DNA of 63,936 bases, filler included, from Folioceros fuciformis (lineage: Eukaryota), in the NCBI GenBank assembly GCA_049999805.1. It is 8 parts of 8 records of this genome, joined end to end, with 100 filler letters (N's around TTAATTAATTAA, not from the genome) between each part and the next. Parts side by side here need not be neighbours in the genome. Positions count along the whole stretch, not along the records: positions 50,595 to 60,347 come from JBNGIO010005322.1; 7 more parts are not named here. One strand, 5' to 3'. The first letter of the stretch is position 1, and every line of letters begins with the position of its first letter. Positions 1 to 61,097 of this stretch are shown piece by piece. Below the pieces are notes generated by a model. The model saw only the letters and a program-made list of their open reading frames with translations, did not search any database and was not told the DNA's origin. The translations under genes were made by a program, and so were the position numbers.

Positions 1-1530
1 ATGGATGAGGAGATGAGGTCCCTTGAAGGTAATGATACGTGGATGTTGACAACATTGCCCGTAGGAAGGAATGCCATTGGGTGTAAATGGGTGTTCAGAA
101 TCAAGAGAAATGCAAGTGGGAAAATTGATAGATTCAAGGCTAGGTTGGTGGTGAAGGGATACTCCCAAGAGGAGGGCATTGACTACAATGAGACATTTGC
201 ACCAGTTGCCAAGTTTGCATCCATCAGAACCTTACTTGCAGTGGGAGCAATATATGATTTGGAGATTCATCAAATGGATGTGAAAACAGCATTTCTAAAT
301 GGGGACTTGGAGGAAGACATTTACATGGAGCAACCCCAAGGCTATGTAGTTGTGGGCAAGGAGAACATGGTTTGCAAATTGAAGAAAGCTCTTTATGGAT
401 TGAAGCAGGCTCCAAGAGCTTGGTATCAAAAGATTAACTCATATCTTTTGGAGCAGGGTTTTCGGCAATGCACATCAGATGAGAGCATCTACATTTTTGA
501 GGTCTCCCAAAGTAAGGTAATCTTAGCCATATATGTGGATGATCTTATCTTGTTGAGTCCATCTTTAAGCAGTATTGATAAAGTGAAGGAGATGTTGTCA
601 AAGAAGTTTGAAATGAAGGACTTAGGGAACATCAACTATTGTCTTGGAATTGAAGTGCAGAGAGATAGGGCAGCACGTATCATCAGGCTTGGTCAGCAAG
701 GGTATGTTGAGGGATTATTGGAGCGATTTGGAATGATGGATTGCAAGCCTATTGGGACCCCTCAAGACTTAGGCGTGAAGTTGTGTAAGGTTGACTACTC
801 ATCAAATGATGGGGAGGAGCATGAGATGAGTAACATCCCATATAGGGCAGCAGTTGGAAGTTTGATGTATGCCATGGTAGGAACACGTCCAGACATTGCA
901 AAGGCAGTGGGAGTAGTGAGCCAATTTATGCAAAGCCCTGGAAAGCAACATTGGATTGCGGTGAAAAGGATCATGCGATACTTGAGAGGTACAAGTGATA
1001 TGTGGTTGGAATTCTCGGGTGGAATCAAATGCCATAATATTATTGGGTATTGTGACTCCGATTGGGGAAGTGATCTTGATGATAGAAGATCAACTACAGG
1101 ATATACTTTTATTTTAGGAGGAGGTGCCATTACCTGGAATAGTAAGAAGCAACCCACGGTGGCCATATCGACAGTTGAAGCTGAGTACATGGCATCCACA
1201 CAAGCCACCAAGGAGGCCGTATGGTTGAGAAAGCTCATGGAGGAGATTGATTATGAACAATTGCATCCGACCACTCTTAGGAGCGATAGTCAAGGAAGTA
1301 TGGCCTTGATCAAGAATCCAGTGCATCATGCAAGGACAAAGCATATTGACATTCAACATCACTTTGTACGTGAGAAGGTGAAGTTATTGGAGGTTACCTT
1401 TGAATATTGCAACACTGAGGAAATGGCTGCAGATTTCTTAACCAAGGCAGTGAGCAAGTTCAAGTTTGAGAAATGCAGGGGACTACTTGCAAACTCAAGT
1501 GCGCTGAGTGGGAGTGTTAAGCATGATTAA
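1..1530 (+). CDS. Ty1/copia pol, RT and RNase H (5' truncated by window)
   Basis: Open 509-aa frame with KARLV, QMDVKTAFLNG, YVDD, YCDSDW, HARTKHIDI and MAADFLTK; the stop lies just inside the 3' LTR. Confidence 0.97.
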   Translation: MDEEMRSLEGNDTWMLTTLPVGRNAIGCKWVFRIKRNASGKIDRFKARLVVKGYSQEEGIDYNETFAPVAKFASIRTLLAVGAIYDLEIHQMDVKTAFLNGDLEEDIYMEQPQGYVVVGKENMVCKLKKALYGLKQAPRAWYQKINSYLLEQGFRQCTSDESIYIFEVSQSKVILAIYVDDLILLSPSLSSIDKVKEMLSKKFEMKDLGNINYCLGIEVQRDRAARIIRLGQQGYVEGLLERFGMMDCKPIGTPQDLGVKLCKVDYSSNDGEEHEMSNIPYRAAVGSLMYAMVGTRPDIAKAVGVVSQFMQSPGKQHWIAVKRIMRYLRGTSDMWLEFSGGIKCHNIIGYCDSDWGSDLDDRRSTTGYTFILGGGAITWNSKKQPTVAISTVEAEYMASTQATKEAVWLRKLMEEIDYEQLHPTTLRSDSQGSMALIKNPVHHARTKHIDIQHHFVREKVKLLEVTFEYCNTEEMAADFLTKAVSKFKFEKCRGLLANSSALSGSVKHD

Positions 1531-13972: not shown

Positions 13973-14072
13973 NNNNNNNNNNNNNNNNNNNNNNNNNNNN
14001 NNNNNNNNNNNNNNNNTTAATTAATTAANNNNNNNNNNNNNNNNNNNNNNNNNNNNNNNNNNNNNNNNNNNN

Positions 14073-14274: not shown

Positions 14275-17200
14275 TGAAGGATCGCTAGAGGAGCATGGTG
14301 AAGGAGAGGAGAAAGAGAGGTCACACTCTCACAAAAGGTCTCAATATGCAAGGGAGCTCAAGGGGGTATTTATACCCTCTAGAAGAGCTCCCTAGGAAGC
14401 TTCACAAGAAGCGCACAGGAAGCTGCGCAAGAAGCTTCCTAAAGATTAGCTTAAGCTAATATAAACTAATGATACTTAACTAAATACTAATCTTAGACTA
14501 AACACATTAGTCTAAGCACATTGGGCTTTAATAACCCTACAACCTCCCACTGAAAGGCCAATTTATCTTTATAGGAGAGTGGTCTACCTCATGCCCATGA
14601 GTATCCGAGCTTGTGCGAATTGCTTCGAAGAGAGCCCCTTGATAAGAACATCTACAGGGTTCTGACTGGTGTGAACTTTGACAAGTTGTACCCTCTTGTC
14701 TTCCAACACCTCTCGAATGAAGTGATACTTCACTTCCACATGTTTGGTCTTCACATGAAACACTGGATTCTTCGCCAATTGGATGGCACTCTGGCTATCA
14801 CACACAATGCAACATTGGCAGCTTAACCTTGATTCCCAAATCTCCGACTAGACGAACAAGCCACATGGCTTCCTTGCATGCCTCAGTCGCTGCAACATAC
14901 TCAGCCTCTGTGGTAGATAGTGTTATGCACGATTGCAAACGCGATCGCCATGAGACTGCCCCTCTAGTGCACATGAAGACATAACCTGATGTAGACCTCC
15001 TTTTGTCCATATACCCTACATAATCAGCATCCGTGTATCTCACGACAGATGCATCTTCACCACCAAAACATATACACAAAGTTTTTGTACCATTCAAGTA
15101 CCTCATAACTCCTTTCACTGCCTCCCAATGCTTCTTGCCACGGTTTGACATAAACCTGCTAACCACTCCCACTGCAAATGCAATGTCAAGACTCTTAGCA
15201 ATCATTGCATACATCAAACTCCCCACAGCTGATGAGTATGGAACCTTCTCCATTTCAGCTTTGTCCTCCGCAGAGCTTGGGCAATCTTTGCTCGAAAGTT
15301 TCATATATGGAGGCAATGGAGTACTCAATACCTTCCCCTTCTCCATATTGAAACGTTGAAGCACCTTGTTAATGTATTCAGTCTGAGATAAGTAAAGCAA
15401 ATGCTTCTATCTGTCTCGACAAATACGCATGCCAAGAATATGGCTGGCCTCTGCCAAGTCTGTCATGTCAAAGCGACCATTCAACATTGACTTCAACGCT
15501 GAAATCTCATCACTGTTAGTCCCAGCAATTAGCATATCATCCACATAGAGGACCAGAATGAGCAAGCTTCCATCCTTAGCTTGCTTCGTATAGAGGCAAT
15601 GATCCTCATCATTACGTTTGTAGCCTTGAGAAAGCATAAACGAGTGGAATTTGAAATACCACTCCCTGGGTGCCCGCTTCAAACCATAAAGGCTCTTCTT
15701 TAACCTGCACACCAGACTCTCTTTGCCCTTCTCAATGAACCCTCTGGTTGCTGCGTGTATACCTCTTCCTGCAGATCACCATGCAGAAATGCCGACTTCA
15801 CATCCATCTGGATAAGTTCCATGTCATGCCTTGCAACCAGACCAAGGACACATCGCAAGGTGGTCATTTTGACAACTGGCAAGAAAATCTCATCAAAGTC
15901 AATACCTTGCTGTTGCTTAAAACCCTTAGCAACCAATCATGCCTTGTACTTGGGTTTGCCATAATGGGGTATGTCCTTCATCTTATACACCCATTGCATG
16001 GCAACGCCTTCTTGCCCTTAGGCAACCGAACCAACTCCCAAGTTTGGTTCTTGTGGAGCGAATCCATCTGCGACTGCATCGCCTTCTCCCACTTGTCCTT
16101 GCTAGTCACTGACATGGCCTCTTGGTAACAAGAGGGCTCCCTACAATCCATCAGCAGGACATAATTAAGAGATGCAACATACCTGTCAGGAGGACGTGAG
16201 ATCCAACCTGACCTACGAAGCACTGGCGCCTCGACCGGAGCTGGTTGCACTCTCTCCTCTTGTACAAGTGGAGGAACTTGTTCCTGCACATCACGACGTT
16301 CAACCTGCACATGACGGTTAAATCCATCTTCTTGAAAGACCACCCGTCGCACCTCCACAGTTGGAGTAGGCTTCTTGTGCATCTTGGTCTCATTGAAGAA
16401 CACGTCATTGCTGCGAACCATCTTCTTGGCCTCTGGATCCCACAGACGGTATCCCTTCTCACCAGATTCACCATAGCTAAGAAAAATACATTTTCTTGTC
16501 TTGGGAGCCAACTTGTCCCGAAACTCCTTCGGAACGTGGTAGTATGCCTCGCAGCCAAACACTTGTAGATGCTTGTATGACGGCTTCTTTCCAGACCACA
16601 TCTCCTCTGGAACCTGTTCATCCACAGCCCTATTAGGAGATCTGTTAATAAGATGCACCGCAGTAGCCACTGGTTCTGCCCAAAATCCGTTAGGCAATCC
16701 AGAGTTTGACAACAAACTACACATCCTCTCCTAGATGGTCCTGTTCATCGTTCAGCCACACCATTCTGGGGAGGAGTATACGGCGTAGTCAATTCTCTCT
16801 TGATTCCCTTAGAATCACAGAATGACTGGAAAGCCTTCAAGACATACTCTCCCCCATTTTCTGTCCTTAGACACTTCAGTCGAAGGCCAAACTGATTCTC
16901 CACAAGGGTGACGAACTTCTGAAACATTGTCAGAACATCATCCTTTTTCCTCAAAGGATAAACCCACACCTTGCGTGAGAAGTCATCAATGAAAGTGACA
17001 AAATAAGATGCACCGCCTAACGATGCAGTGGGCATAGGATCACAAACATCACTGTGAACCAACTCAAGAGGTTTACTTTTGTGTTTACCTCTTGCTCCAT
17101 GTGGTGACTTCGTCTGTTTTCCATACAAACAGTGCTCACACACGGAGAAATCGGAGAAGTCAAAAGCAGGGACATAACCAAAACGAGATAGTATCTTCAT

Positions 17201-19568
17201 TCATTTTTGAGACATATGTCCTAACCAACTATGCCACAAGGAAACACTTGGCTGTTCCGTTACACAAATCACATGATCCTTGGTAGTGGTTACCTGAAGT
17301 GAGTACAAAGTGCCACACTTCGATCCACGAGCTAACACAAGAGAACCTTTGGAGATCTTTCAAGAACGATCTCCAAACCAACAATGGTAGCCAACGTCAT
17401 CCAACTGCCCTGCGCTAATCATGCTTTTGGCCAACTTCGAGACATGCCTAACATTCTTCAGTATGAATGAAGATCCATTGTCAAACTTCAGCTGTACATC
17501 ACCAACGCCTACAATCTCACATGCATAGTTATTTCCAAGCCAAACACATCCTTTCCTACTAGCATCATAACTGCTAAACCACTCCCTATGCGGAGTAACA
17601 TGGATAGATGCTCCAGAGTCAATTATCCAATTAGAGAATAAGTGACTCTCCCCAGCTGTCAGTTGTGCAGAATCGAAGGAAGAAGAGATAAGAACATCTC
17701 CATCGTCAACAGAGTTCATCTCATCATGCTTGTTACTCGAACTTGCCTTGTTGTCACTCTGCTTCTTCTCCTTGCCTTTGTCCTTCTTGAACTTCTCGCA
17801 GTCCCTTCTGATGTGTCCCTTTTTGTGACAATGGTAACACTCAACATTGTTACGACTACGAGACTTACTACGGGAACGACTTCGCTCCTTGTACTTCCCC
17901 TTTGAAGTGGACCTTCCTCTCACCATGAGGGCATTGGAACCTTTCGAAGGTTCCATATTCTTCCTATTTACCTCCTCTGTTAACAGGCTACCTTCTACAT
18001 TTACAACGGCAAGACCACTGGCAGGAGTAGAATTACTCAGAGCTATACGAAAGGTGTCCCAGCTCTCTGGTAATGTGACCAACAAAAACATAGCTCTCAC
18101 GGAATCTCGAAACGAGATACCTTGAGATGAGAGCTGGCTGAAAATGGTATTGAACTCGTTCAGATGATCGGACATCCTCGTCTCTTCCTTCATCTTCAAG
18201 TCCACCAGCTGTTTCAACCAGTACACCTGAGAAGCCGCACTTTGCTTCTCGTACAAGTCACACAACTTCTGCCCTAGCTTGTAGCTTGTGGTCTTGTCTT
18301 TCACGTTGAAGTAGACCGACTTCGACAATGTTAGTATGATCGTAGACTTAGCAAGCTCATCTAGGTCCTACCACTCATCCTGAGTCATGCTAATGGGTTT
18401 CACTCCTAGCAACTTTATCGGCTTGATCTGCTTCTTCTGTACTAGAACATTATACACTTGTTCTTTCCAGAACGGGAAGTTAGTACCATCTAACTTCTCG
18501 ATATTGAACATGACATTTTCTGAGAACGCCATGTTTCAAAATCAATTCAAATCAAGCAAAATGCTAGTTAGAAATTGTTGAAAATGTAGATTTTGTTATC
18601 CTCGTTTCGATTCTTCTGTCCACAATTTAGGATGACACGTCGAGCCTAAATCCTCCTGAGATCCGATTCCACCTTGTGGCTGGGATCCCAACTAGCTCCC
18701 TTCTTTGCCCTTGACGTCGATGCTCAGACACTTGCAATCCAGTGCCCGGCGTTAGCGACTCCCACATGCGACGATAGCCCGTAATTCGGCTTGGTAGCCT
18801 CGCTCGTCCGCAGGACTAGCGTCCGCTGGCCGCGATTGGCACTTGTCGGCGCTGCTGCCGTTCGCCGACCGGGACTGACGCCCGCTGGTCGATCCACGTC
18901 CGGCGGCCTGCCTGGCCATGCCCTGCGCCACGCAGTCCGGCTTCGGAGTCGTCGGCCGGGCCAGCGTCCCCGCACCCCGTGAGCCGGGCTGGCGCTCTGG
19001 AGCTCCGAGCGGGGGCGCCCCCGGGGCCTNNNNNNNNNNNNNNNNNNNNNNNNNNNNNNNNNNNNNNNNNNNNNNNNNNNNNNNNNNNNNNNNNNNNNNN
19101 NNNNNNNNNNNNNNNNNNNNNNNNNNNNNCCCGTGTGGGATGGTAGCCCCTTCTATCCTCGGCAGCGGGTTGCTGCTCACAGCTCCCACTCACTTCGATG
19201 CCTTCCTCGCGGAGCACTTGCAATCATCACCTATCCAGCTTCACACCCAAGCTCCACAACCTTGCTCTGATACCACTTGAAGGATCGCTAGAGGAGCATG
19301 GTGAAGGAGAGGAGAGGAGGAGGCAAGGAGGAGAGGAGAAAGAGAGGTCACACTCTCACAAAAGGTCTCAATATGCAAGGGAGCTCAAGAGGGTATTTAT
19401 ACCCTCTAGAAGAGCTCCCTAGGAAGCTTCACAAGAAGCCTACAGGAAGCTGTGCAAGAAGCTTCCTAGAGATTAGCTTAAGCTAATTTAAACTAATGAT
19501 ACTTAACTAGACACTAATCTTAGACTAAAGACATTAGTCTATGTACATTGGGCTTTAATAACCCTACA
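14275..19568 (-). mobile_element. Full-length Ty1/copia element (family B), decayed
   Basis: LTRs at 14275-14541 and 19278-19568 (TG..CA); TCCTT target-site duplication on both flanks; PBS TGGTATCAGAGC at 19264-19275; PPT next to 14542. Confidence 0.96.
14584..18532 (-). pseudogene. gag-PR-IN-RT-RNase H polyprotein with stops and frameshifts
   Basis: CYHCHKKGHIRRDC knuckle, [47 protein letters not shown] and TKHVEVKYHFIRE spread over several frames. Confidence 0.93.
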
Positions 19569-49342: not shown

Positions 49343-50411
49343 TTATGCAGCAGCCTTGGCCGCCGCACGTTTCTTGGCCTCCTCCACAATCGAGAGCTTG
49401 ATACCCTTACCCCTGGGCAAGGTCACCCAAGGCTTGGTTCCCTGCCCGATCGTGAACACGTTACCCATTCTGGTGGCAAACTCGTGACCAGCAGCATCCA
49501 CCACGTGAATGATGTCAAAGCTGCCCTTATGCTTCTCCCGGTGCTTGATGATGCCCACTCTGCCCCTGTTGCGCCCACCAGTCACCATCACTATGTTCCC
49601 GATATCAAACTTGATGAACTCCACCACCTTGCCGGTTTCCAGATTGATCTTAATCGTGTCGTGCACCTTGATCAAGGGATCAGGGTATCTGATAGTGCGC
49701 CCATCAAAAGTGGAGACGTAGGGCACACCCTTGTCACCAAACTGAGCTGCGCGGACCTTGCACAGCTTGTACTGTGATGGCACACAGTCACTTCGTCAGT
49801 TGAACACAACCAAACCACCAAAATGACAGGTGAGCCCTGGCACACCGAGCTGCATACCTTCGCCTCCTCAAGGCTGATCGAGTGGAGAGTGAAGCGACCC
49901 TTGCTGTCGTACAGCAGCCTGAAATTCTCACCAGTCTTGGCGATAGAAATAACATCTGCAGAGGAATCCAAGTAACATCGTCATGGGTCGTCGCCCTGCG
50001 ATTTTAACAGGGCCTACGACATTGTGTACGAGACTGACACCCTCACTTACCCATGAATCCAGCTGGATAACACTTGTCTGTCCGCACCTTGCCATCGATA
50101 GAAATAAGCCGTTGCATAACAATTGCCACGACTTCCCTGTAAGTAAGGGCATACTTCAACCTGTTTCGCAACATCACAACCAGGGGCAAACATTCCCTCT
50201 CCTTGTGCGGCCCAGATGATGGCTTGGGGGCCTGAGGGACAGCAGCAGCAGTCAATAACCTAACATAGCGGGTATTTTCGAACAAGCCACATCCGAGCTC
50301 AACAACAAAAAGAGAAAGCCAGGAAGAACTTACAAAGGCGCCCCCAAGCTTGTCGAGCATCCAGTGCTTCGGTGCATTCAGCCGCTTCAGATGCTTCTTC
50401 AAACCACGAGC
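49343..50411 (-). CDS. RPS4: 40S ribosomal protein S4 (eS4); ATG exon beyond the contig end
   Basis: [49 protein letters not shown] and [11 protein letters not shown] over four GT-AG exons. Confidence 0.96.
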
Positions 50412-51817
50412 CTGCAATAAAGAAAATCAAGCCATTCAGCGCATCGCAGGGTGGAAGACTGGATGTAAACAACGTCAACCACACGGCCGAGGTCNNNNNN
50501 NNNNNNNNNNNNNNNNNNNNNNNNNNNNNNNNNNNNNNTTAATTAATTAANNNNNNNNNNNNNNNNNNNNNNNNNNNNNNNNNNNNNNNNNNNNCATCGA
50601 CCCCGCTCGCTTGCAAGCATTCCGCCATGTTGACGCCCGCGCCGGTCTCCCCATGCGCTCGCCCGCTTCCACCTGGCGACCAAACCCGCAAGTCACAGTG
50701 TCACCAGAGATGCCCAGCCTGCCCGCAGCTGCGGCTGTAGCTGCTTTGCAAGCACGATGCGCAGATGGCAGGATTGACAAGAGCCTGAGCCTCGAGCACG
50801 AAGCGCAAACAGGCCTAGGATAGACAGAGATGAGAGATTTGTGTGCCCAGACGTGTCAAGGCAAGAAGCAGGCAGGGAAAGGGGATGAAACGCACAGTAG
50901 TCCGCACATGTAGATTCACAGCAGCAGTCGGAGAGGAGGAGCAGGCCACATGGCAGCCGAACTGGCAGTGGGGCACTGGAACAGGGACTGGCCGGCAGCA
51001 CCTCGACCTGCAGGCGCACGGGGGGGTGTATCGCACCGCATCTAAACGCCTCCGCCTCCGCGTCCGCCGCCACCCTTGTACCCCTGGACTGGCCCCCTGC
51101 GGCTCTTCCCCTCAGGCTGCCAGAAGACAAAATCTAATCCGGACCGAAGCCAAGCCAAGCCAAGCCAAGGCGACTGACAGAATCCCGATTTCGGATGAGC
51201 ACACAATCACGCGCAACGTAGCCTTCCTCCCAAATTTACACGCTCGCTACCGGTAGCCCATAACCTCGCAGCCGCAGCACACCAAATTGCGGTGGCGGGA
51301 CCGGCCATCCTTTTTTTGGGCCTCCGGAGTTAAACCAGTTATGTTATGTTAAGTTATGTATATCGCGTCCGCACGAGCTACACGGCATGGCATCGAGCCT
51401 TAAAAGCCCAGCTGCGACGTGCAACCTGCGACCCGCGCTGCCCAAGCGAAACCCACGGGATTTGCACATGCCTTTGGCATGCTCTACCACTGTGTCATCC
51501 AGTTGTGACTACACTACGTTTGCTCATGCCCCGAATCCAGCCGCCGCTAGCCTCTCTTTCCCTTTCCCTCTCCCTCGCCTGGGACTGCACTTCGCCTCAT
51601 ACATGGTGGAATCCAGGAGGCTGGACGCTGGAGTGGACTCCATATAGTGCAGTCACCCCATCAAACATTTGTAATCGGCCCGCGGGAGAAGGTTCCGTGT
51701 GCTCCATCATCAGACACGTTCACTACCTGCAACGCAGGTTGAGGCCGAGACTGTCACGACTCCCTAGTCCTCTAGCAGTGGCACCTCTAGGAAGGAAGGG
51801 CCAAGGGCTCCCGAGTT

Positions 51818-51905
51818 CGAGTGCGAGTGCGAGTGCGAGTGCGAGTGCGAGTCCGAGTGCGAGTGCGAGTGCGAGTGCGAGTGCGAGTCCGAGTCCGAGT
51901 CCGAG
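51818..51905. repeat. (GAGTGC/GAGTCC)n microsatellite
   Basis: Hexamer tandem run. Confidence 0.95.
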
Positions 51906-53858
51906 GCCCAGCCTTGCCGAGCTACTCTAAAAGTGGTGATAATTCAGCACTCGTTCCCTTTCGTTCCTCTGCAAGTTGCGCCGCCAGAACGCATACGTAT
52001 GGCCCACCTCCGATTCGGTCTCCGACTCTATCGCCCGTATTTTGTCACCCAATCCTCTGCCTCCATAAGCGCAGGCGCTACGCCCGCCGCTCCCACTGTG
52101 CTTCACACCATGCTTGGTCGCTCGCTTGTGGCAGAGAAGAAAGCCTCCGTGGTTGGTTGGAGGAGAGTGCGCTCAAACGTTTCCTGGCCGCAAAGTGTTA
52201 TTTTCTTAGACTTCTGGAAACTTCGTGCCAATACGGGGCTTAAAAACTAGGTTTGGAATCTAGGACCCACTCTTTCCGGATATGCACACCATCTGGCTCT
52301 TGGCTCAATGCCGCACTTGTCATTAATAAAACGAATCAAGGAGGCTCATGCGTGTCTGCCAATACCGCGCGCAGACGTTTGAAGGGGCCACGCCTTTACT
52401 CCCATCTTCCCCGCAAGTAACCCAAGTGTGCAGTGTGGCTACCCACCTTGCTCCCTCCTGGAGTCAGGACCTGGCCATTTACTTGCAGCCTCGCCTCACC
52501 CAAGCTCTCCACCCTGAGGCAATGAAACAGGCCTGGGATGATGCTGCTGTCAGTAACCAAGTCATGTGTCTGTCACCCTAGTACCACAGTTGCTTTCGGA
52601 TTTTCTCTACCCTGCTCACGTTCAGCCCGGAACGAAAAGACACAGACAAGCAGGCGCTTGTTACAGTCTACTGCTCTTCCAACATTCCACAGCTTGCGCG
52701 GCAACCCCATCTGCATCTGCACACACGTGCAGTACACACATATCTTCAGCGCAATGAGCCTTCGCAGTGCACGGCACGGTGGAACTTCCTGCCCAAATCC
52801 AGCACAACCAGGCATAGCATCTTCCTAGCCCTCATCACCCTCTCCACCACATCACAACGCATTCCTGCGCCTCCCAATTCGGTGACTTCCAAGCCCTAAA
52901 ACTCGGCATTGAAACGGTGCCACCCTGCAACGCTCCCCCACATTTCCTCCTGCTCTTTCTCCCACCCCCACCCCAACCCCGGACAAGCAATTCACCTCCT
53001 ACTCCCCTCTAGGGCTCCTCTCTCTCTGGCACAGCCGGGATGCAAACTCCCACACCACGCTTGGGCGAGGAGGGAAACTGCAAGCCTGCTGTTCATGTGC
53101 CCGCGCCAACTCCCATCCCTGCCGATCCCATGCTTTGTTTGGCCCTGCCGTCAGCCGATAGCCACTTCAGAATCGTCCCATGGGCAACATATCCAAGTAC
53201 AGTACTTGGCCTTCGCACTCCCAAGTTTTTCATCGATGAAAAAGCCACACACCTAAAATTCCTTACTGAGTCACCTCTCATTATGGCTGATCGCATAACT
53301 ATATAATCACCTACCTTCCTAGGGCGCTAGTTACATCTGTCGAAACGAGGCCGAGCCAGCGAGGGTTCTTCTCCCCGGGCCAAGCGCTCCTCTAACGGGC
53401 CTACGAGCTGCTGCCGTCGCATGTGCTGCAATGTGGGCTGCGGTCCCCATGCACTAGCAATGGAACATAGGCCCGGATCTTGCTCGCATGCCGGAGATCG
53501 GAATGAGCATGGCTTCGGCGGCTACCTTGCTTTCATGTCTCAGCTTCCAGCACCTTTGATCCTTCCTGCAACCGGGAGCCTTCAGCTCGGAAGCAGCACT
53601 AGGTGCGTGTTGGAGTTTGGTGCTTCGGGATCTGAACAATGCGGCAGCTTCAGGGAAGGGACAGGAGGAGGAAAGTGGATCATTCCACAGGGTTGCTTTG
53701 ACGGCAGTTTTTTGTGCGTGAAGCCTGAAGTGTGAAGGGTGTGTTTTGTGAGAGGAAACCGGAACAGCGTGATGCCTGCGGATACTGCCGGCTAACCGGA
53801 TTGTGGATTTTGTGTGCGTTTCAGTTCATGTTAGCTGTTAGCAACCGGAAGGTCGTCC

Positions 53859-54296
53859 ATGGCAGCAGCAGCAGCAGCGAGCTTTTTCAGAGGGAGGAAG
53901 GAGGAGCCGCCTGTCGAGGTGGAGTTCTGGCATAGTGCGGATCGTGAAGGCTGGCTCACCAAGCAGGGTGAGTACATTAAGACGTGGCGCAGGCGCTGGT
54001 TTGTTTTGAAGGGGGGTAAGGTTTTCTGGTTCAAAGACAGAATTCTGTCCAGGAACTCCAAGCCCAGGGGTGTGATCAACATGGGCAGCTGCCTCACCAT
54101 TAAGGGTGCTGAAGATGTGTTGAACAAGCAGAACGCTTTTGAGCTTTCTACAAATAAGGAGACCATGTACTTCATAGCCGACACGGAAAAGGAGAAGGAA
54201 GATTGGATTAACTCCATGGGTCGGGCTATCGTACGCTTCTCCAGGTCTATTACCGAGACAGAAGTTCTAGACTATGACAGCCAGCCTGTCCGATAG
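53859..54296 (+). CDS. Small pleckstrin-homology domain protein (plant PH1-like)
   Basis: EGWLTKQGEYIKTWRRRWFVLK...YFIADTEKEKEDWINSMGR; intronless 145 aa. Confidence 0.93.
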   Translation: MAAAAAASFFRGRKEEPPVEVEFWHSADREGWLTKQGEYIKTWRRRWFVLKGGKVFWFKDRILSRNSKPRGVINMGSCLTIKGAEDVLNKQNAFELSTNKETMYFIADTEKEKEDWINSMGRAIVRFSRSITETEVLDYDSQPVR

Positions 54297-54956
54297 GGCG
54301 GGCGGGTCGGCTCTTGGCGTGATCGAAATTTTTGATCTGACGTGATAGCCATTTTTCTTCACCACCCTACCAATATTCTACTTGTGTTAGCCTTCCATGT
54401 TGTCAAAGATTGGAGCGGTTGCTGGCTTTCATCGTCTGGGGTCATGTGAAGTGCTTGGTTGGGTCATCGTCAGTCGTTGTAATAACCTCATGGTGGTCCA
54501 TCTAGCCACTCGCTACCTGTCTTGTCAACATTGGGCAGTCTTGTACATGTGACTCTTAACATGTGCCCTCTTTGACGACCTGGCAGCTCCTATCTATCTC
54601 CAGCAACCCCTGGAGAGCCTTATGTACCTTGTTTCTGTACAGAAACTACTTGTGCTCCTTTCGTGTGAACTCTTACGTCCTTTGACCTCCACTGTGTTCT
54701 CAACAGTCAGGCCACCAATGACAAGGGCCCTCCCATCCATTGTGATGTTGATGTTGTGCACAGCACTTGCATGTGGCAGCTGAACTCGCAACAGCTTGCC
54801 TGGTAGTCCCTCTGTTGGCTCACCCGGTGCCTCGTGGGTTACGAAGTTCACGCAGAAGGTTCCAGGTACTTGATTCGGACGTGCCTGGTAACGAGCCGTG
54901 AATTTCAGTCTCACCAGTCAGATTTCTTAGTGCAACCATCTGTCTTTCGGGACCTC

Positions 54957-56523
54957 ATGGCAGCGTTAAGATTGCTGAGCCAACCTGTGCTTCCTGTTGC
55001 TGTGGCCGCCTTCTCCTGTTGCACTGCAGATACCCGCTCCTCAGTGCACCTCCAGTAAGTTTTTCCTTCTCGCTCTCTGGCCCTTTCGACGTGTCTGGCA
55101 TCTCTCCCAATGTTAATCCGGCCTGAGGCGCTGAATGTGCTGTGAGATGGCAAGGGGATTCACCACGCACAGGTGGCTGCAGGCGTGGGCTAGGATTGGG
55201 TTGGCCCAGCTTGAGGTTGGGTGGCAGTAGGGGTTCGAGAGCGTGCTCGCTGTGGCCAGCGCTGCGTTGCGCCTTGGCGGAAGACATGGCCGTGGAGACG
55301 CAAGGGCACACATCCACCTCGCAGGTATTGAAAACCAGGCTACAGTGCCTACCCTGGGTTCACTGTAGGTCATGGGTTTCTAGGCGCTGCTGGGAATCGC
55401 AAAGGCTGACTATGATGTGCTGGACAGCAGGGCAATGGTGCGTTTTTGCCGGAGCTTCTGGTGAGCATTTTCTGGTCTGCACGCTTTCGTGGCCCACGAA
55501 CGTGGCATGGAATTAACTTGTGCCCCGTGCCTTTGTTCCGTTTCTTGCAGACTGAGTTCATGGTCGACATGAAATGCGAAGGGTGTGTGAAATCAGTCAG
55601 AAGCAAGCTGGAGCCATTAGAGGGTACGTGTCCACGCGGCCCAGTCCTGGACATGCCTTTTCTTTACCCGGAGAACCAGCACTGCACTGACACAGTTCGC
55701 TACGATGTTGCTGCTGTACCAGGGGTGAAGTCAGTGGATGTGGATCTTCCCAATCAGGTAGTCAAGGTGTTGGGCTCAACATCCTTGAGGGAGTTAGCAA
55801 CAGCTCTTGAGCAGTCAGGTCGTAAAGCCAGACTGATAGGCCAAGGCTCCCCAGAGAGTAAGTAGGCATTGGCCCTTAACAGGCCCTGATGTCACTTTAC
55901 AGGGTCTTGCACGTCCCGTCAGCTGATAGCAGATGCTGCATGGCTGCTTCAGAGTTTGCACTATCTGCAGCAGTGTCTGAGTTCAAGGGCCCAGTCATCT
56001 ATGGGGTAGTGAGGTTCGCTCAGGTGAGTATGGAACTTGCAAGGATTGAGGCCTCCTTCACAGGCCTGCGGCCCGGCCTCCATGCTTGGTCCATCAACTG
56101 TTACGGTGACTTGAGGAAAGGAGCTGCCTCTACCGGTCCTGTTTACAATCCTCCGGGGAGTAGTGAGGTATGCTTTCCTGCGATCCACAGTTGCCATATA
56201 CGGTTAGTGACACACCCACGTCTCTGGCCTTTCTGAGCATGTCTTGGCTGCAGCCACTGGGCGATTTAGGTGTTTTGGAGGCGAAGGCGAGTGGAGAAGC
56301 TGAATTCTTGGGGACCAAACCACAGCTGATTGTAGGGGATTTGATCGGAAGGGCCTTGGTCCTTTACGATGACCAACTGAAGAGTAAAGATGGTATAGCT
56401 GCCGCGGTTATTGCTAGAAGTGCAGGCGTAGGGGAAAACTACAAGAAGCTGTGTACTTGTGACGGGACTGTGATCTGGGAGTCCACTAGCGCGGATTATG
56501 TTCCAGGTGTCAGTGTACTGTAA
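54957..56523 (+). CDS. CCS: Copper chaperone for superoxide dismutase, with likely transit peptide
   Basis: HMA domain TEFMVDMKCEGCV, SOD-like domain (HAWSINCYGDL, DLIGRA) and C-terminal KKLCTCDGTVIWES; GT-AG introns; start codon inferred. Confidence 0.93.
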
Positions 56524-57233
56524 GTGTAAGATACTGAAAGTGGGTGTTCGCAACACTCTGGATGTCCAATGACAACCCGTAGATATCGCGTTGTCTGTCG
56601 GCACCTTCACAATCCATAGCGTCCATGAATCTACACATCTCACCTTAATCGGTAACCGCGTACTGGCTGTTCAGATGTTTTCGCGGGGCTTCGAATAGGA
56701 AGCGTTTTAGTCAAAGCAAAGAGATGCAGTTAACGTACTCTCTGACCAAGCCCGTGAGAGTCAGATCTTGACCTGTCCAATGAAGTAACCGTGCCAATTT
56801 GGGAAGCGTGGGGAGGAACCTCGGATATCAATTCCAGGATCTTATTCTCGATGGAACGGCCTTCGCTCTTGAGGGGTTCCTCATGCTGGTGCAATCCTCC
56901 GGCGTTCAGCTGGCAGGTTGTTCAGTGTTAGATTGGAAGCCTTGTGATTGGTGACTTTCAACATATTGCGATCTAGGTCTTTTGAGTCATCCTTCTATTT
57001 GTCGTTGGACTCCTCCGCCCTTCAGGTGGCAAGCTATTACTGTATGTTGCCACTCCGGTCTCGGATGGGACCTTGAGTGTCTGTGCCCTAAAGGTCTTTA
57101 AGTTTTTCTCCTCCGTCTTGATTTTCAAGTTGTCCTTCTGCTACTGTAATATTGTGGACGATCAGTAAAGATCAACAACACCAACGGTGATTGCAACTCC
57201 AGAGCTAGCAGGTGGTCCGGAGTNNNNNNNNNN

Positions 57234-58948
57234 ATTAGTGCCGTCCATGTCACCACATCCTTCGTGGCCAAGCTTTCAAAAACCCTTCGTGCATCTTCCA
57301 GCTCATCGCATTTTGAGTACATATCCACCAGGCAGTTACCCAGCACAACGTTACCCAGCAGTCCCCTTTCAACAATCTGCGTGTGCAACTGCTTGCCCTT
57401 CTGTAATGCACCACTGCTTGCACAGGCCTTTAGCAGGCAAGCAAAAGTAACACGGTCAGCCAAAATGAGGCCCTCCTGCTCCATTTGTTCGTAGACAACA
57501 AGCGCCTCCTGCCCTAGTCCTTGCTCTGCATACCCAGAAATCAGCACCGTCCATGTCACCACACTCTTTGTGGCCATGCTGTCGAAAACCTGGCGTGCAT
57601 CCTTTAGTTCACCACATTTTGCATACATGTCCACCAGGCATGTGCTCAACACTACGTCATCCAGCAGTCCCATTTTGACGATCTGTGAGTGCAGCTGCCT
57701 GCCCTTGTGTAGAGCACCCGTGCTTGCACAGGCCTTGAGAACGCACGCAAGAGTAACATGATTAGCCAAAATTAGACCCTCCTCCTCCATTTGTCCATAG
57801 AGGACGATCGCCTCAGCTCCAAGCCCTTGCTGGGCATGCCCAGCTATTAGGGCATTCCATGTCACCACATTCTTCGTGGGCATGATTTCAAAAACCTGGA
57901 GTGCTTCTTTCAGTTCCCCACATTTTGAATACATGTCCACCAGACAGGTACCAAGAAAAACGTTAAGTGGAATGCCACTCTGCAATAGATCACGATGTAC
58001 TTCTCTGCCAGATTCCAAGTCGCCGGCAAATGCACAAGCTTGAAGGGCAGCTACAAAGACGTGGGCATCCGCCTTCACTCCTGACCTACGCATCTCATGG
58101 TACAAATGGACGGCCTCATGAGGTTTCCCATGCTTAGCGTATGCGGAGATGATAGAAACCCACATGAAGGCATCTGGTTTGTCAACCCTGGTGAGCACAT
58201 CCATCGCCTCCTCTAGCCTCCCTCCACTCGCATACATGCGCAATATATGGTTCCCCAGGTATGCATTCGACTCGAATCCAAGTTTCACGGTGAGGTCATG
58301 AACTCGTCGTCCCAAAACCAAGTCCTTCTTTGCTGTACACAGTTTTAGGACAGTGTAAAACAGAGACTGAGTAGTCGCAGAGTCTGTCTGTGCCAGAGAT
58401 TCCAGGGCTCCCACGGCCCCAACAAGATTCCCTTGCTGACAAAACATGCTCACGGTTGCAGCCGTTACGACGCCCTTTTCCGATCCTGCACGCCTGCAAG
58501 GTTCAGGCTTGTCAGGAGAGCTCGACTGGAGAAGAGGGGCACTGAGACCCATCTGAATATCCAAGGAAACTAGCTGCCCATCAACCCAAGCTGGCTTGAA
58601 CATGCTGTTTAACCACAGGACCTCGCCGGACCCCTTGCGCCGGAAGTCAGGCGAGCGGGAGCTCTTCTTATCTCGTCTGTTGTCCCACCACATGGAAGGG
58701 TCCAGAAAAAATTGTTGCCACAAGTGTTCCTGCTCCTGACGGCGACCAACGGTGGACAGCCCGTCCCCGCCCACTGGTTTCCTTGGAAGTGGAAGTACCG
58801 GGCTGGTAACACTGCTGCACCTGGGGCATTCGTCGTTTGCCAGCGGTTGACTCCTTGAGGTGAGGTGGGCGGGGGCCATTCCCACAATCCGCGGAGACAC
58901 ACCAATGTATTCGGTCCACGACAGGTCCGGTTGCCATACTGTGGCCAT
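57234..58948 (-). CDS. PLS-class PPR protein with N-terminal OSB-type PDF motif; C-terminus lost at the N gap
   Basis: Repeated LVDMYxKCGEL and VVTWxALI..YA P-L-S triplets; LWQQFFLDPSMWWDNR..SPDFRRK..VLWL at about 58575-58725. Confidence 0.9.
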
Positions 58949-59257
58949 CGTTCAGGGACCGCTGTTGGATGATAAGTCTGGTAGCGGACTTCAGGAAGAG
59001 GCCAAGGTCCTTTCAGTGCATCACCACAGAACTAGGAAGCCAAGGGAGGAGATTTTCTTCATTGGATCGAGCTCAAAAAATTCATTTCTTGTTACATCGA
59101 TTGCACTCTGATAAGTAAGAGTACTGTAAAAGTGAATCTACAGAATGGTTCACACGTCTTGTACGGGAGACGTCGGCAGTTAAGCACATTGAACTCTCCC
59201 AGGAAAAGCGACATATTCTGAGGGCTACACATTTCAGTACGTCCGTTTACATTAGTT

Positions 59258-60320
59258 TCAAGGTCGACCCTTACAACTGCAAGAACCAGCGGCGAATCGA
59301 TGCACGCGGTACCCATCCCTTACAACAATATCTCTTTGTTCAAGCCTTGACATAATCTTTGTGGAACGGTGGTAGTCATTGCACATGCGTAGATTTTTGG
59401 TGACCACAAGAGATGTACCACTGGGAGTGTTCAAGAGGCCAAAAGCAAGAGCTAGTTTCTCAGCATGCCCACAAGCAACTCCTCCTTCTCCTGCTCACAC
59501 AAGCCTTGACATAATCTTTGTGGAACTGTGGTAGTCATTGCACATGCGTAGATTTTTGGTGACCACAAGAGATGTACCACTGGGAGTGTTCAAGAGGCCA
59601 AGAGCAAGAGCTAGTTTCTCAGCATGCCCACGAAGCAACTCCTCCTTCTCCTGCTCACACAGTGGCTTCAACACCAAATTTGTCTGAGGTACATGGCCTC
59701 CTTCATGCTTCACTCATGCATTTGTACTCTCTACCTTGAGCATGATACCCTCCCTCCTTTCTCCAACCAGGAATCTATGCACGTGCTTGTTCACCTCAAT
59801 GGTTGCCACTACAGGCTTCTTGTTAGCTTCTGCTACCATTCTCTATTTTCAATCCTGTCCACATCGGTCCACCTGCCTGCATCTGCACAAGCATTGGCCA
59901 TGAGCACATGCGCAGACGCCCTTTCAAGGTCAAGTCTCACAATACTTTCAAAACACTGCACCGCCCTCTCCACGTCCCCATGACTTTTGCAGGAGTTCAA
60001 CAAAGACGTCAACCCCACAACATTACTTCGGCTCTCGCATGATAGTAGCATCCGCTCTGCCTCATCTAAATGGCCAGCACGACCAAGGAGGTCAACCATG
60101 CAATCGTAATGCTCAATAGTAGGTTTGATGCCATGCTCTTCAACCATTGAATCAAAGTGATTGAGACCCTCCTGAACCAGTCCCTGGTGGTTGCATGCCG
60201 CTAGAAGGCAGGGTAAACGTAGCACCATCAGGCTGGATACCGACAACTAGCATCTCCTTAAAACAACCTAACGCGCTGCAAGCCTCATCACAACTATAAT
60301 ACCCCGATATCATGGTGTGA
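59258..60320 (-). pseudogene. PPR E-DYW:KP (GRP-ending) pseudogene with internal duplication
   Basis: HYDCMVDLLGRAG E motifs, KKPVVATIEV, HAEKLA, KNLRMCNDYH and terminal GSCSCKGRP* at 59258; frameshifts, an in-frame TGA and a roughly 160-bp tandem duplication. Confidence 0.9.
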
Positions 60321-61097
60321 TGAGGGTCGCAGTGCGTTAGCTTGTTTNNNNNNNNNNNNNNNNNNNNNNNNNNNNNNNNNNNNNNNNNNNNTTAATTAAT
60401 TAANNNNNNNNNNNNNNNNNNNNNNNNNNNNNNNNNNNNNNNNNNNNTGGGACCAAACCTATACTCACTCTTATAACCAAACCAACTATTTCCTGATCAA
60501 TTAACCTAATTAGCACAAAGAAAAATAGGAAAAATGACAAGAAAATCAAGGAAAATGAGGGAAAATAAGTTGAAAAAGAAAACCAAACCATACCACTATT
60601 AACCCTTTTTCAACCAAAACAGACTACTACCCCAAACTTTGAAGGTTCACACCAGATCAACTAACACTCTTTGAATAGGGATGAAGATTGGAAAGTGCAC
60701 TACAGGAATAAAGATATTGTTATTTCTTCTAGTCTTATTGTGGAATAGAAAATTTTGGTAATCGGTCTAGGAAAGTCTAACTTGGTTTCTTTTTGTTCAA
60801 AATAGTTAGAAGGGAGGCATATGGAAGGTAGGTTTCTGGGCAAGTGCCCATAGTAGGTAGTGAGCAGCTGGTGAAGGTTTTTATGGATTTTTTTAGTTCT
60901 ATTTTGGTAGGTTAGGATAAGAAGATACCTACGTAGCAGGATGTCTACCTACATACGTAGAGAGAGTACCTACGTGGGGAAAATGGAAGATACCTACGTA
61001 GGTAGGGAAGGTACTTATACATAGACACCCCACCTACGGCAATGGTGTAGGCAGTCTATCTACGACAATGGGTGGGAATGGTAGGGAACCTACCTAT

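Follow-up and report, generated by a model that had tools for sequence, protein, structure and literature searches.

The window analysed here, a stretch of 63,936 nucleotides of Folioceros fuciformis (assembly GCA_049999805.1), contains on its minus strand a gene in which a PDF motif, of the type found in OSB proteins (plant organellar binders of single-stranded DNA), is followed by a tract of pentatricopeptide repeats (PPR) of the PLS class. Judged from sequence comparisons, this PDF-PPR gene is most likely a nuclear gene for an organellar RNA-editing-type PLS PPR factor equipped with an OSB-type PDF. In plant organellar RNA editing, specificity is conferred by PLS-class PPR proteins, which are also being engineered as programmable RNA editors. 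The fusion had been proposed from a sequence-only reading of the stretch, to which two points are added here: an assembly gap cuts the gene, and the fusion is a widespread, expanded family.

Frame translation places the start codon at 58946-58948, with 571 codons open to 57236 without interruption. The stop-to-stop frame spans 58951 to 57125 on the minus strand, a stop codon lying immediately 5′ of the ATG. Both the PDF and the PPR parts are encoded by this single intronless frame within an N-free stretch, so that the fusion asserted in the sequence-only reading stands. The span then attributed to the gene, 57234-58948, is right at its upper bound, which is the ATG; the lower bound is the edge of a run of 10 N and not the end of the gene. 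Past this gap, the translation in the same frame is not PPR-like. As the 3′ end of the gene meets the gap, the truncation stems from the assembly and not from biology, and the C-terminus is not seen. A 3950-base contig of run X1 is identical to 56800-57223, and none of its listed pieces reaches 57234 or beyond. As this contig does not cross to 57234, the gap probably hides more than 10 bases. An artefact of gene prediction or assembly was considered as the source of the fusion, and was rejected in view of the N-free frame and the 56 other fusions described below.

The N-terminal 187 residues of the deduced protein were used as a phmmer query against 1.84 billion representative proteins. A total of 608 proteins matched at E ≤ 0.001, with 168 at E ≤ 1e-10 and 15 at E ≤ 1e-30. 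The best 150 of the 608 were listed, and in all 150 the top-matching stretch overlaps the PDF motif, within query residues 21–179. Among the matches are an OSB3-like protein of Chenopodium quinoa (named at source OSB3, chloroplastic/mitochondrial-like) and an OSB1-like protein of Populus (OSB1, mitochondrial-like). By BLASTP, the motif of the window is 49% identical to a PDF of the Populus protein (E = 2e-20); the Chenopodium protein has four PDFs, with which its identity is 40–48% (E = 2e-15 to 2e-17). Pfam matched no family to the first 187 residues, even at E ≤ 10. A six-frame scan found a single PDF in the whole window, at 58571-58741. The best 150 matches were sorted by an iterated search seeded on the OB region and by a PPR search. 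An OB-like region is present in 81, a PPR tract in 12, and the other 57 carry PDFs alone. The PDF-only group comprises many short fragments and some arrays of up to 11 motifs. A word-index search with residues 1–300 returned only ordinary angiosperm PPR proteins (29–37% identity); with the PDF alone (residues 60–135) there were 14 candidates, none of which scored. Neither a close orthologue nor a full-length copy of the gene was recovered by these word-index searches.

Sixteen columns are conserved at 80% or more in 318 PDFs linked to an OB region. The PDF of the window retains 15 of these, the exception being the replacement of K by R in "PDFK". In the other PPR-linked PDFs (n = 94), 14 of the 16 columns are retained at the level of 80% or more, and the information per column in OB-linked and PPR-linked PDFs is correlated (r = 0.80). 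As read from these alignments, the PDF is under the same constraints in the OSB and PPR contexts, from moss to ferns, which argues for a retained biochemical activity and not for a relic. The alignment with the OSB1-like and OSB3-like PDFs, together with the 15 conserved columns, confirms what the first reading had recognized in the segment: it is a true OSB-type PDF motif, far above chance.

In the remainder of the protein, Pfam matched PPR families only, from about residue 190: PPR (1.7e-54), PPR_2 (1.2e-49) and PPR_1 (1.7e-33), PPR_3 being likewise well over the cut-off. P motifs start at residues 262, 363, 465 and 567. This period of 101–102 residues fits triplets of 35/36 + 35 + 31 residues and identifies a PLS-class array. 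It consists of a degenerate first motif (around residue 160), an L and an S motif, three full P-L-S triplets and the start of another P motif. The class had been named in the sequence-only reading, and it is borne out by the Pfam families, the period and the helices of the structural model; tandem P, L and S motifs forming a solenoid of helical hairpins, by which the class is recognized, are all found in the protein.

The PDF motif alone (77 residues, alignment of 38 rows) was modelled by AlphaFold2 (AF2) with a predicted local distance difference test score (pLDDT) of 91.3. The model has a helix (residues 6–22), short strands (27–29, 42–44 and 50–51) and a further helix (61–72). The full 571 residues were modelled with a 34-row alignment of fusion proteins, with a pLDDT of 85.5. 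Residues 1–63 and 134–155 have a pLDDT below 50, the PDF (66–133) is confident, and 26 helices with a pLDDT above 90 extend across residues 163–570. In the predicted layout, a leader without order precedes the small folded PDF, which a flexible tether of about 22 residues connects to the PPR solenoid. The leader is presumed to be an organelle-targeting peptide. Foldseek of the PDF model against the Protein Data Bank (PDB) gave a best E of 4.4, hence no solved relative; in VIA-align (wide), the highest Z was 4.2 and no chain reached Z ≥ 5, and a search of the ESM Atlas gave no usable match. The lack of a solved relative does not make the fold new; it means that the structure gives no hint of the binding mode.

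The gene is not a singleton. The 12 PPR-bearing proteins among the best 150 of the 608 phmmer matches come from Adiantum capillus-veneris (two proteins), Ceratopteris richardii (two loci), Pteridium aquilinum (two open reading frames (ORFs) of a transcriptome), Diphasiastrum complanatum, Selaginella moellendorffii (RefSeq), Sphagnum compactum and three more assemblies. The fusion models of S. moellendorffii are named in RefSeq just as PPR proteins. A profile was built from 13 PPR-linked PDFs and searched against longer proteins, which gave 730 matches at E ≤ 0.001; PPR Pfam families are present in 44 of the best 120, which were listed. Of these 44, 42 are separate 90%-identity clusters of D. 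complanatum. The E motif (PF20431) is found in 38 of the 44, and the DYW_deaminase domain (PF14432) in 6.

Altogether, 56 fusion proteins were retrieved besides that of the window, and family counts are lower bounds. As the matches listed are the best-scoring ones, fusions with a single PDF are under-sampled. In 55 of the 56, all PDFs (one to three copies) are N-terminal of the PPR tract. The exception, P0193 (1362 residues), has PDFs at 94–196 and 631–734, and resembles two tandem gene models merged. An iterated search seeded with the OB region of OSB proteins found no OB-like region in any of the 56 fusions or in the window protein; the same search found it in 132 PDF proteins. The window protein belongs with this group: a single polypeptide carries a PDF ahead of the PPR tract and has no OB domain. 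Two fusions, P0062 and P0128, were read from ORFs of Pteridium transcriptome contigs, so that the PDF and the PPR tract share one transcript in a fern. The C-terminal residues are ...CGDYW in six Diphasiastrum proteins, ...CRDYW in the Sphagnum protein and ...GGRP in P0108; many fusion proteins end within or shortly past the E region. By homology, the PDF-PPR fusion is recurrent across ferns, lycophytes and Sphagnum.

The locus tags of many Diphasiastrum complanatum fusions lie close together, for example O6H91_16G079600, 079700 and 079900; 16G085100 and 085400; 16G069400 and 069500; 06G018500 and 018700. This suggests tandem clusters, like the two neighbouring PPR genes of the window. Separately, the PDF-coding stretch 58564-58731 is covered per position by 52–89 contigs at 85% likeness or more in runs X1, X2, X8 and X16. 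In the same four runs, from four organisms, there are 67–108 contigs at the PPR position 57434, and just 2–5 at the leader (58816-58899). The depth over the PDF stretch is a hint that these plants have dozens of paralogues coding for PDFs, although the short contigs do not reveal the partner domains.

A tree was calculated with FastTree on 60 columns from 658 near-full-length PDF instances, which include 95 that are PPR-linked. The label "PPR-linked" costs 13 changes on this tree, versus 84–94 in 200 label shuffles, and 79 of the 95 PPR-linked PDFs fall in one clade of 87 tips. This clustering is partly trivial because the expansion of one species fills that clade, and as 60 columns leave the deep order unresolved, a single origin of PPR-linked PDFs is not claimed. 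The PDF of the window belongs to a clade of 12 tips (local support 96), 10 of which are PPR-linked. The PPR-linked tips beside it are from Ceratopteris, Adiantum, Pteridium and two more assemblies. By this placement, the plant of origin would probably be a fern or a close relative of ferns. Its sister is the PDF of P0108, the closest full-length homologue, which is 46% identical to the window protein in an alignment of 542 residues. The two proteins are colinear, from the leader (75 residues in P0108, similar to the 65 of the window protein) to the PDF and the PLS array. P0108 then runs into an E motif and a DYW-family domain. The array of the window protein exceeds that of P0108 by at least one P-L-S triplet. 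Because P0108 has such an end, the hidden C-terminus of the window protein most likely consists of more PLS motifs and then an E domain, to which a DYW-type domain may or may not be added.

The window protein has one module in common with OSB proteins. Both have a PDF of about 50–60 residues with W, P, W, D, R, K, PDF, K, LW, P and W positions, and both have a presumed organellar destination. Unlike OSB proteins, in which the PDF sits C-terminal to the OB fold according to the accessible text of a survey (PMC13393729), the window protein is devoid of an OB/SSB-like domain and its PDF is N-terminal to a PPR solenoid. Pfam gave no SSB match at E ≤ 10, with either the N-terminal 187 residues or the whole protein. 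The gene was therefore rejected as a true OSB gene, since neither Pfam nor the iterated OB search found an OB-like domain in its product. With PLS-E and PLS-DYW editing factors, the window protein shares the P-L-S array, and the C-terminal parts of its homologues are E motifs and DYW domains, the latter of the ...DYW as well as the ...GRP kind. The editing factors described so far differ in that they carry just a targeting peptide ahead of the PPR tract. Maize PPR4 resembles the window protein in being an organellar RNA factor with a general single-strand nucleic-acid-binding module N-terminal to the PPR tract; as outlined in the accessible part of a review (PMC9459714), it has an N-terminal RRM, binds intron RNA and functions in chloroplast rps12 trans-splicing. 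It differs in that the module is an RRM and not a PDF, that it is a P-class splicing factor and not a PLS protein, and that it is a single conserved gene and not an expanded family.

PDF motifs were also encountered outside the OSB and PPR contexts. Among the PDF-only proteins P0006 (with its cluster), P0008 and P0191, some, which have up to nine repeats, are annotations from the dinoflagellate Effrenium voratum, and others come from the EukProt and MMETSP transcriptomes. In the accessible part of a review, PDF motifs are stated to be confined to green plants (PMC4166229); either this statement is too narrow, or these sequences are contaminants or transferred genes. Some proteins have 9 to 13 PDF motifs: P0003 (Kingdonia uniflora, 1160 residues), P0017, P0002 and P0018, several of them without a detectable OB domain. 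The maximum given in the accessible text of a 2026 OSB survey is five PDFs (PMC13393729). In two angiosperm proteins, PDFs are joined to unrelated domains: P0039 (Striga, 1063 residues) to a ROP-interactor, and P0042 (Coptis, 1526 residues) to a kinesin motor. Both may result from the merging of gene models and not be true fusions.

A role for the PDF can be proposed from the geometry of PPR proteins. PPR tracts bind single-stranded RNA with the protein N-terminus toward the RNA 5′ end, and the C-terminal E/DYW part of editing factors sits over the edited base. The PPR tract of the window protein would thus read a specific organellar RNA, with its N-terminus to the 5′ side. Given this polarity and the flexible tether at the N-terminal side, the PDF would be within reach of single-stranded nucleic acid immediately 5′ to the PPR footprint. 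By analogy with known systems, it is about an even bet that the PDF there clamps, independently of sequence, a single-stranded part of the RNA that the PPR tract binds. Such a clamp would raise the affinity and keep the target unfolded. The PDF would then be a built-in cis helper, following the logic of the N-terminal RRM of maize PPR4.

The nucleic acid held by the PDF may instead be single-stranded DNA (ssDNA), in the nucleoid, on the non-template strand of a transcription bubble, in an R-loop or in a replication intermediate. The PPR factor would then be anchored at the organellar genome and meet its RNA co-transcriptionally. The PDF is indeed reported as the ssDNA-binding element of OSB proteins and to be sufficient for binding in OSB1, in the accessible part of PMC6963530, and OSB1 and OSB2 are reported to favour ssDNA over double-stranded DNA or RNA, in that of PMC4166229. 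The retention in PPR-linked PDFs of the residues conserved in OB-linked ones is consistent with the same preference, and the long flexible linker of the model would allow each module to hold a molecule of its own at the same time. However, these preferences concern whole OSB proteins and are taken from reviews, and the results presented here do not tell DNA from RNA. The local concentration of RNA would moreover be very high once the PPR tract is RNA-bound. Anchoring on ssDNA is therefore regarded as rather unlikely, although it deserves serious attention.

The PDF could also be a protein–protein or regulatory module, serving self-association, recruitment of a DYW deaminase in trans, or docking to OSB or recombination proteins. 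As the E motif is common and the DYW domain rare in the fusions, many members would need a deaminase in trans. The number of PDF copies varies from one to four, and no solved relative of the PDF model fixes its function. On the other hand, the conserved aromatic and basic positions are the same as in the PDFs of OSB proteins, whose reported function is ssDNA binding. Such a role is considered improbable.

Several points weigh against the gene encoding an editing-type factor with an RNA-clamping PDF. As the window gene is devoid of its C-terminus, its status as an editing factor rests on the homologues. The literature search returned no binding, localisation or editing data for any PDF-PPR protein. 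The preference of OSB1 and OSB2 for ssDNA speaks for another ligand, and neither Foldseek against the PDB nor VIA-align provided the PDF model with a solved structural relative to indicate its binding mode. No listed run on record as RNA holds the window stretch. Lastly, the adjacent upstream paralogue is decayed, so that members of the local cluster can be dead.

The last two points also bear on the possibility that the window copy is itself dead or incomplete, as a tandem-cluster member that was truncated and whose frame has not yet decayed; it would then have no role in this plant. Its 3′ end is missing at the gap, and 309 bases upstream lies a PPR-DYW remnant with frameshifts and an internal duplication. 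A dead copy is nevertheless thought quite unlikely: the 571 codons are open, the PDF keeps 15 of the 16 conserved columns, the regular PPR motifs are confidently modelled, and the truncation falls exactly at the N run, which points to an assembly limit and not to a mutation. A functional PDF-PPR gene for an organellar editing-type factor thus stays the preferred reading.

The sequence-only reading did not know the fusion as a characterised architecture. In agreement, no paper linking the PDF motif or domain with PPR proteins was found in a literature search, from which the large 2020 PPR survey and all supplements were left out, so that an earlier mention is possible. A replication review was the only paper found to mention both the PDF motif and pentatricopeptide. 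A 2024 PPR review makes no mention of OSB, ssDNA or RRM, and the accessible text of the 2026 survey of 182 OSB genes makes no mention of PPR (PMC13393729). The accessory domains tabulated for moss PPR proteins in the accessible part of PMC9459714 are RRM, LAGLIDADG, SMR, NYN, CBS and SAP, with no PDF. The window gene seems to encode a PLS PPR protein with an accessory module not earlier associated with the PPR family. Public databases label the fusions just "hypothetical" or "PPR-containing", which leaves the PDF module currently invisible to annotation.

A recurrent accessory module at the 5′-facing end of the PPR tract, taken from the ssDNA-binding proteins of organelles and conserved from Sphagnum to ferns, would be a new part of the editing machinery, and the known context of the PDF motif is widened beyond OSB proteins. 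PLS PPR proteins need helpers in flowering plants and are thought largely autonomous in early-diverging plants, according to the accessible part of PMC9459714. MORF/RIP proteins raise the RNA binding of PLS PPR proteins, as stated in the accessible part of PMC11897456. A functional analogy between these and a built-in helper is possible and speculative; MORF/RIP are separate proteins of unrelated fold, which bind the PPR tract rather than nucleic acid. To our knowledge, they are confined to seed plants. A bolder proposal is that PDF-PPR proteins constitute a large overlooked class of organellar editing factors of seed-free land plants (moss, lycophytes and ferns), in which the PDF would be a cis helper akin to MORF/RIP/ORRM or a coupler to the ssDNA of the nucleoid; it is put forward as a doubtful one, more likely wrong by a good deal than right. 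Should coupling to ssDNA be true, it would be the first direct protein link between the OSB genome-maintenance toolkit and the editing machinery. The helper idea is directly testable, since bacterial assays for editing are established in which proteins that have or lack the PDF could be compared, and the PDF is a candidate add-on for synthetic PPR tools.

Table 1. Features of the PDF-PPR gene and its surroundings (positions in the window)
Feature	Positions	Strand	Basis
N-terminal presequence (residues 1-65)	58754..58948	-	first ATG past in-frame stop; residues 1-63 pLDDT <50
PDF module (folded residues 66-133; profile envelope 67-128)	58550..58753	-	homology, AF2
Peptide singled out in the sequence-only reading (residues 76-122 of the PDF-PPR frame)	58583-58723	-	
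Flexible linker (residues 134-159)	58472..58549	-	residues 134-155 pLDDT <50
PLS-class PPR array (residues 160-571)	57236..58471	-	Pfam, motif period, AF2 helices
10-N assembly gap, removing the gene 3′ end (more PPR motifs, any E/DYW domain)	57224..57233	.	N run
309-base spacer from neighbour stop to PDF-PPR ATG; presumed promoter/5′ untranslated region	58949..59257	-	sequence
Decayed 3′ remnant of a PPR-E-DYW gene, the upstream neighbour in tandem	59258..60346	-	Pfam, frame breaks

The scaffold of the gene covers 50595-60347, and true neighbours are found only within that span. In the upstream neighbour (59258-60346, minus strand), Pfam matched PPR_2, E_motif and DYW_deaminase, the latter in two overlapping pieces (profile positions 1–66 and 22–91). 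Its E region is 64% identical to that of P0108. The DYW domain has frame breaks and a tandem duplication of about 150–160 bases; it has CNDYH where CxDCH is usual, and ends in GRP. The "KKP..." box and the GRP ending are presumably marks of the DYW-KP (U-to-C) variant. The 5′ part of the neighbour is lost at the scaffold end (60347). From these features, it looks like a decayed tandem paralogue.

Contigs of X1 are identical to the window at 57248-57464, 57682-57870 and 58229-58608, the last of which spans the end of the PDF and the first PPR motifs. X1, the one run that matches the window strongly, is a guessed RNA run and may be the sample from which the window derives; its contigs show the presence of the sequence alone and not co-transcription. 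The segment 58984-59235 has no contig cover, which carries no weight. In a purely descriptive count, the linker stretch is matched by fewer contigs of other runs than its flanks.

The window contains seven paired runs of 44 N (e.g. 13973-14072, 50495-50594 and 60348-60447), each pair flanking the 12 bases TTAATTAATTAA, a six-frame stop linker. As these linkers join separate scaffolds, features across them are not true neighbours. Apart from these pairs, the window has eight runs of 100 N and two runs of 10 N. The scaffold of the PDF-PPR gene also holds a PH-domain exon (53835-54296, plus strand) and an HMA-domain gene, copper-chaperone-like (55416-56523, plus strand). Other scaffolds hold a ribosomal protein S4e exon (49343-49795, minus strand) and pieces of copia-type retroelements (RVT_2, gag and Pol_BBD; 1-1530, plus strand, and 14798-18367, minus strand).

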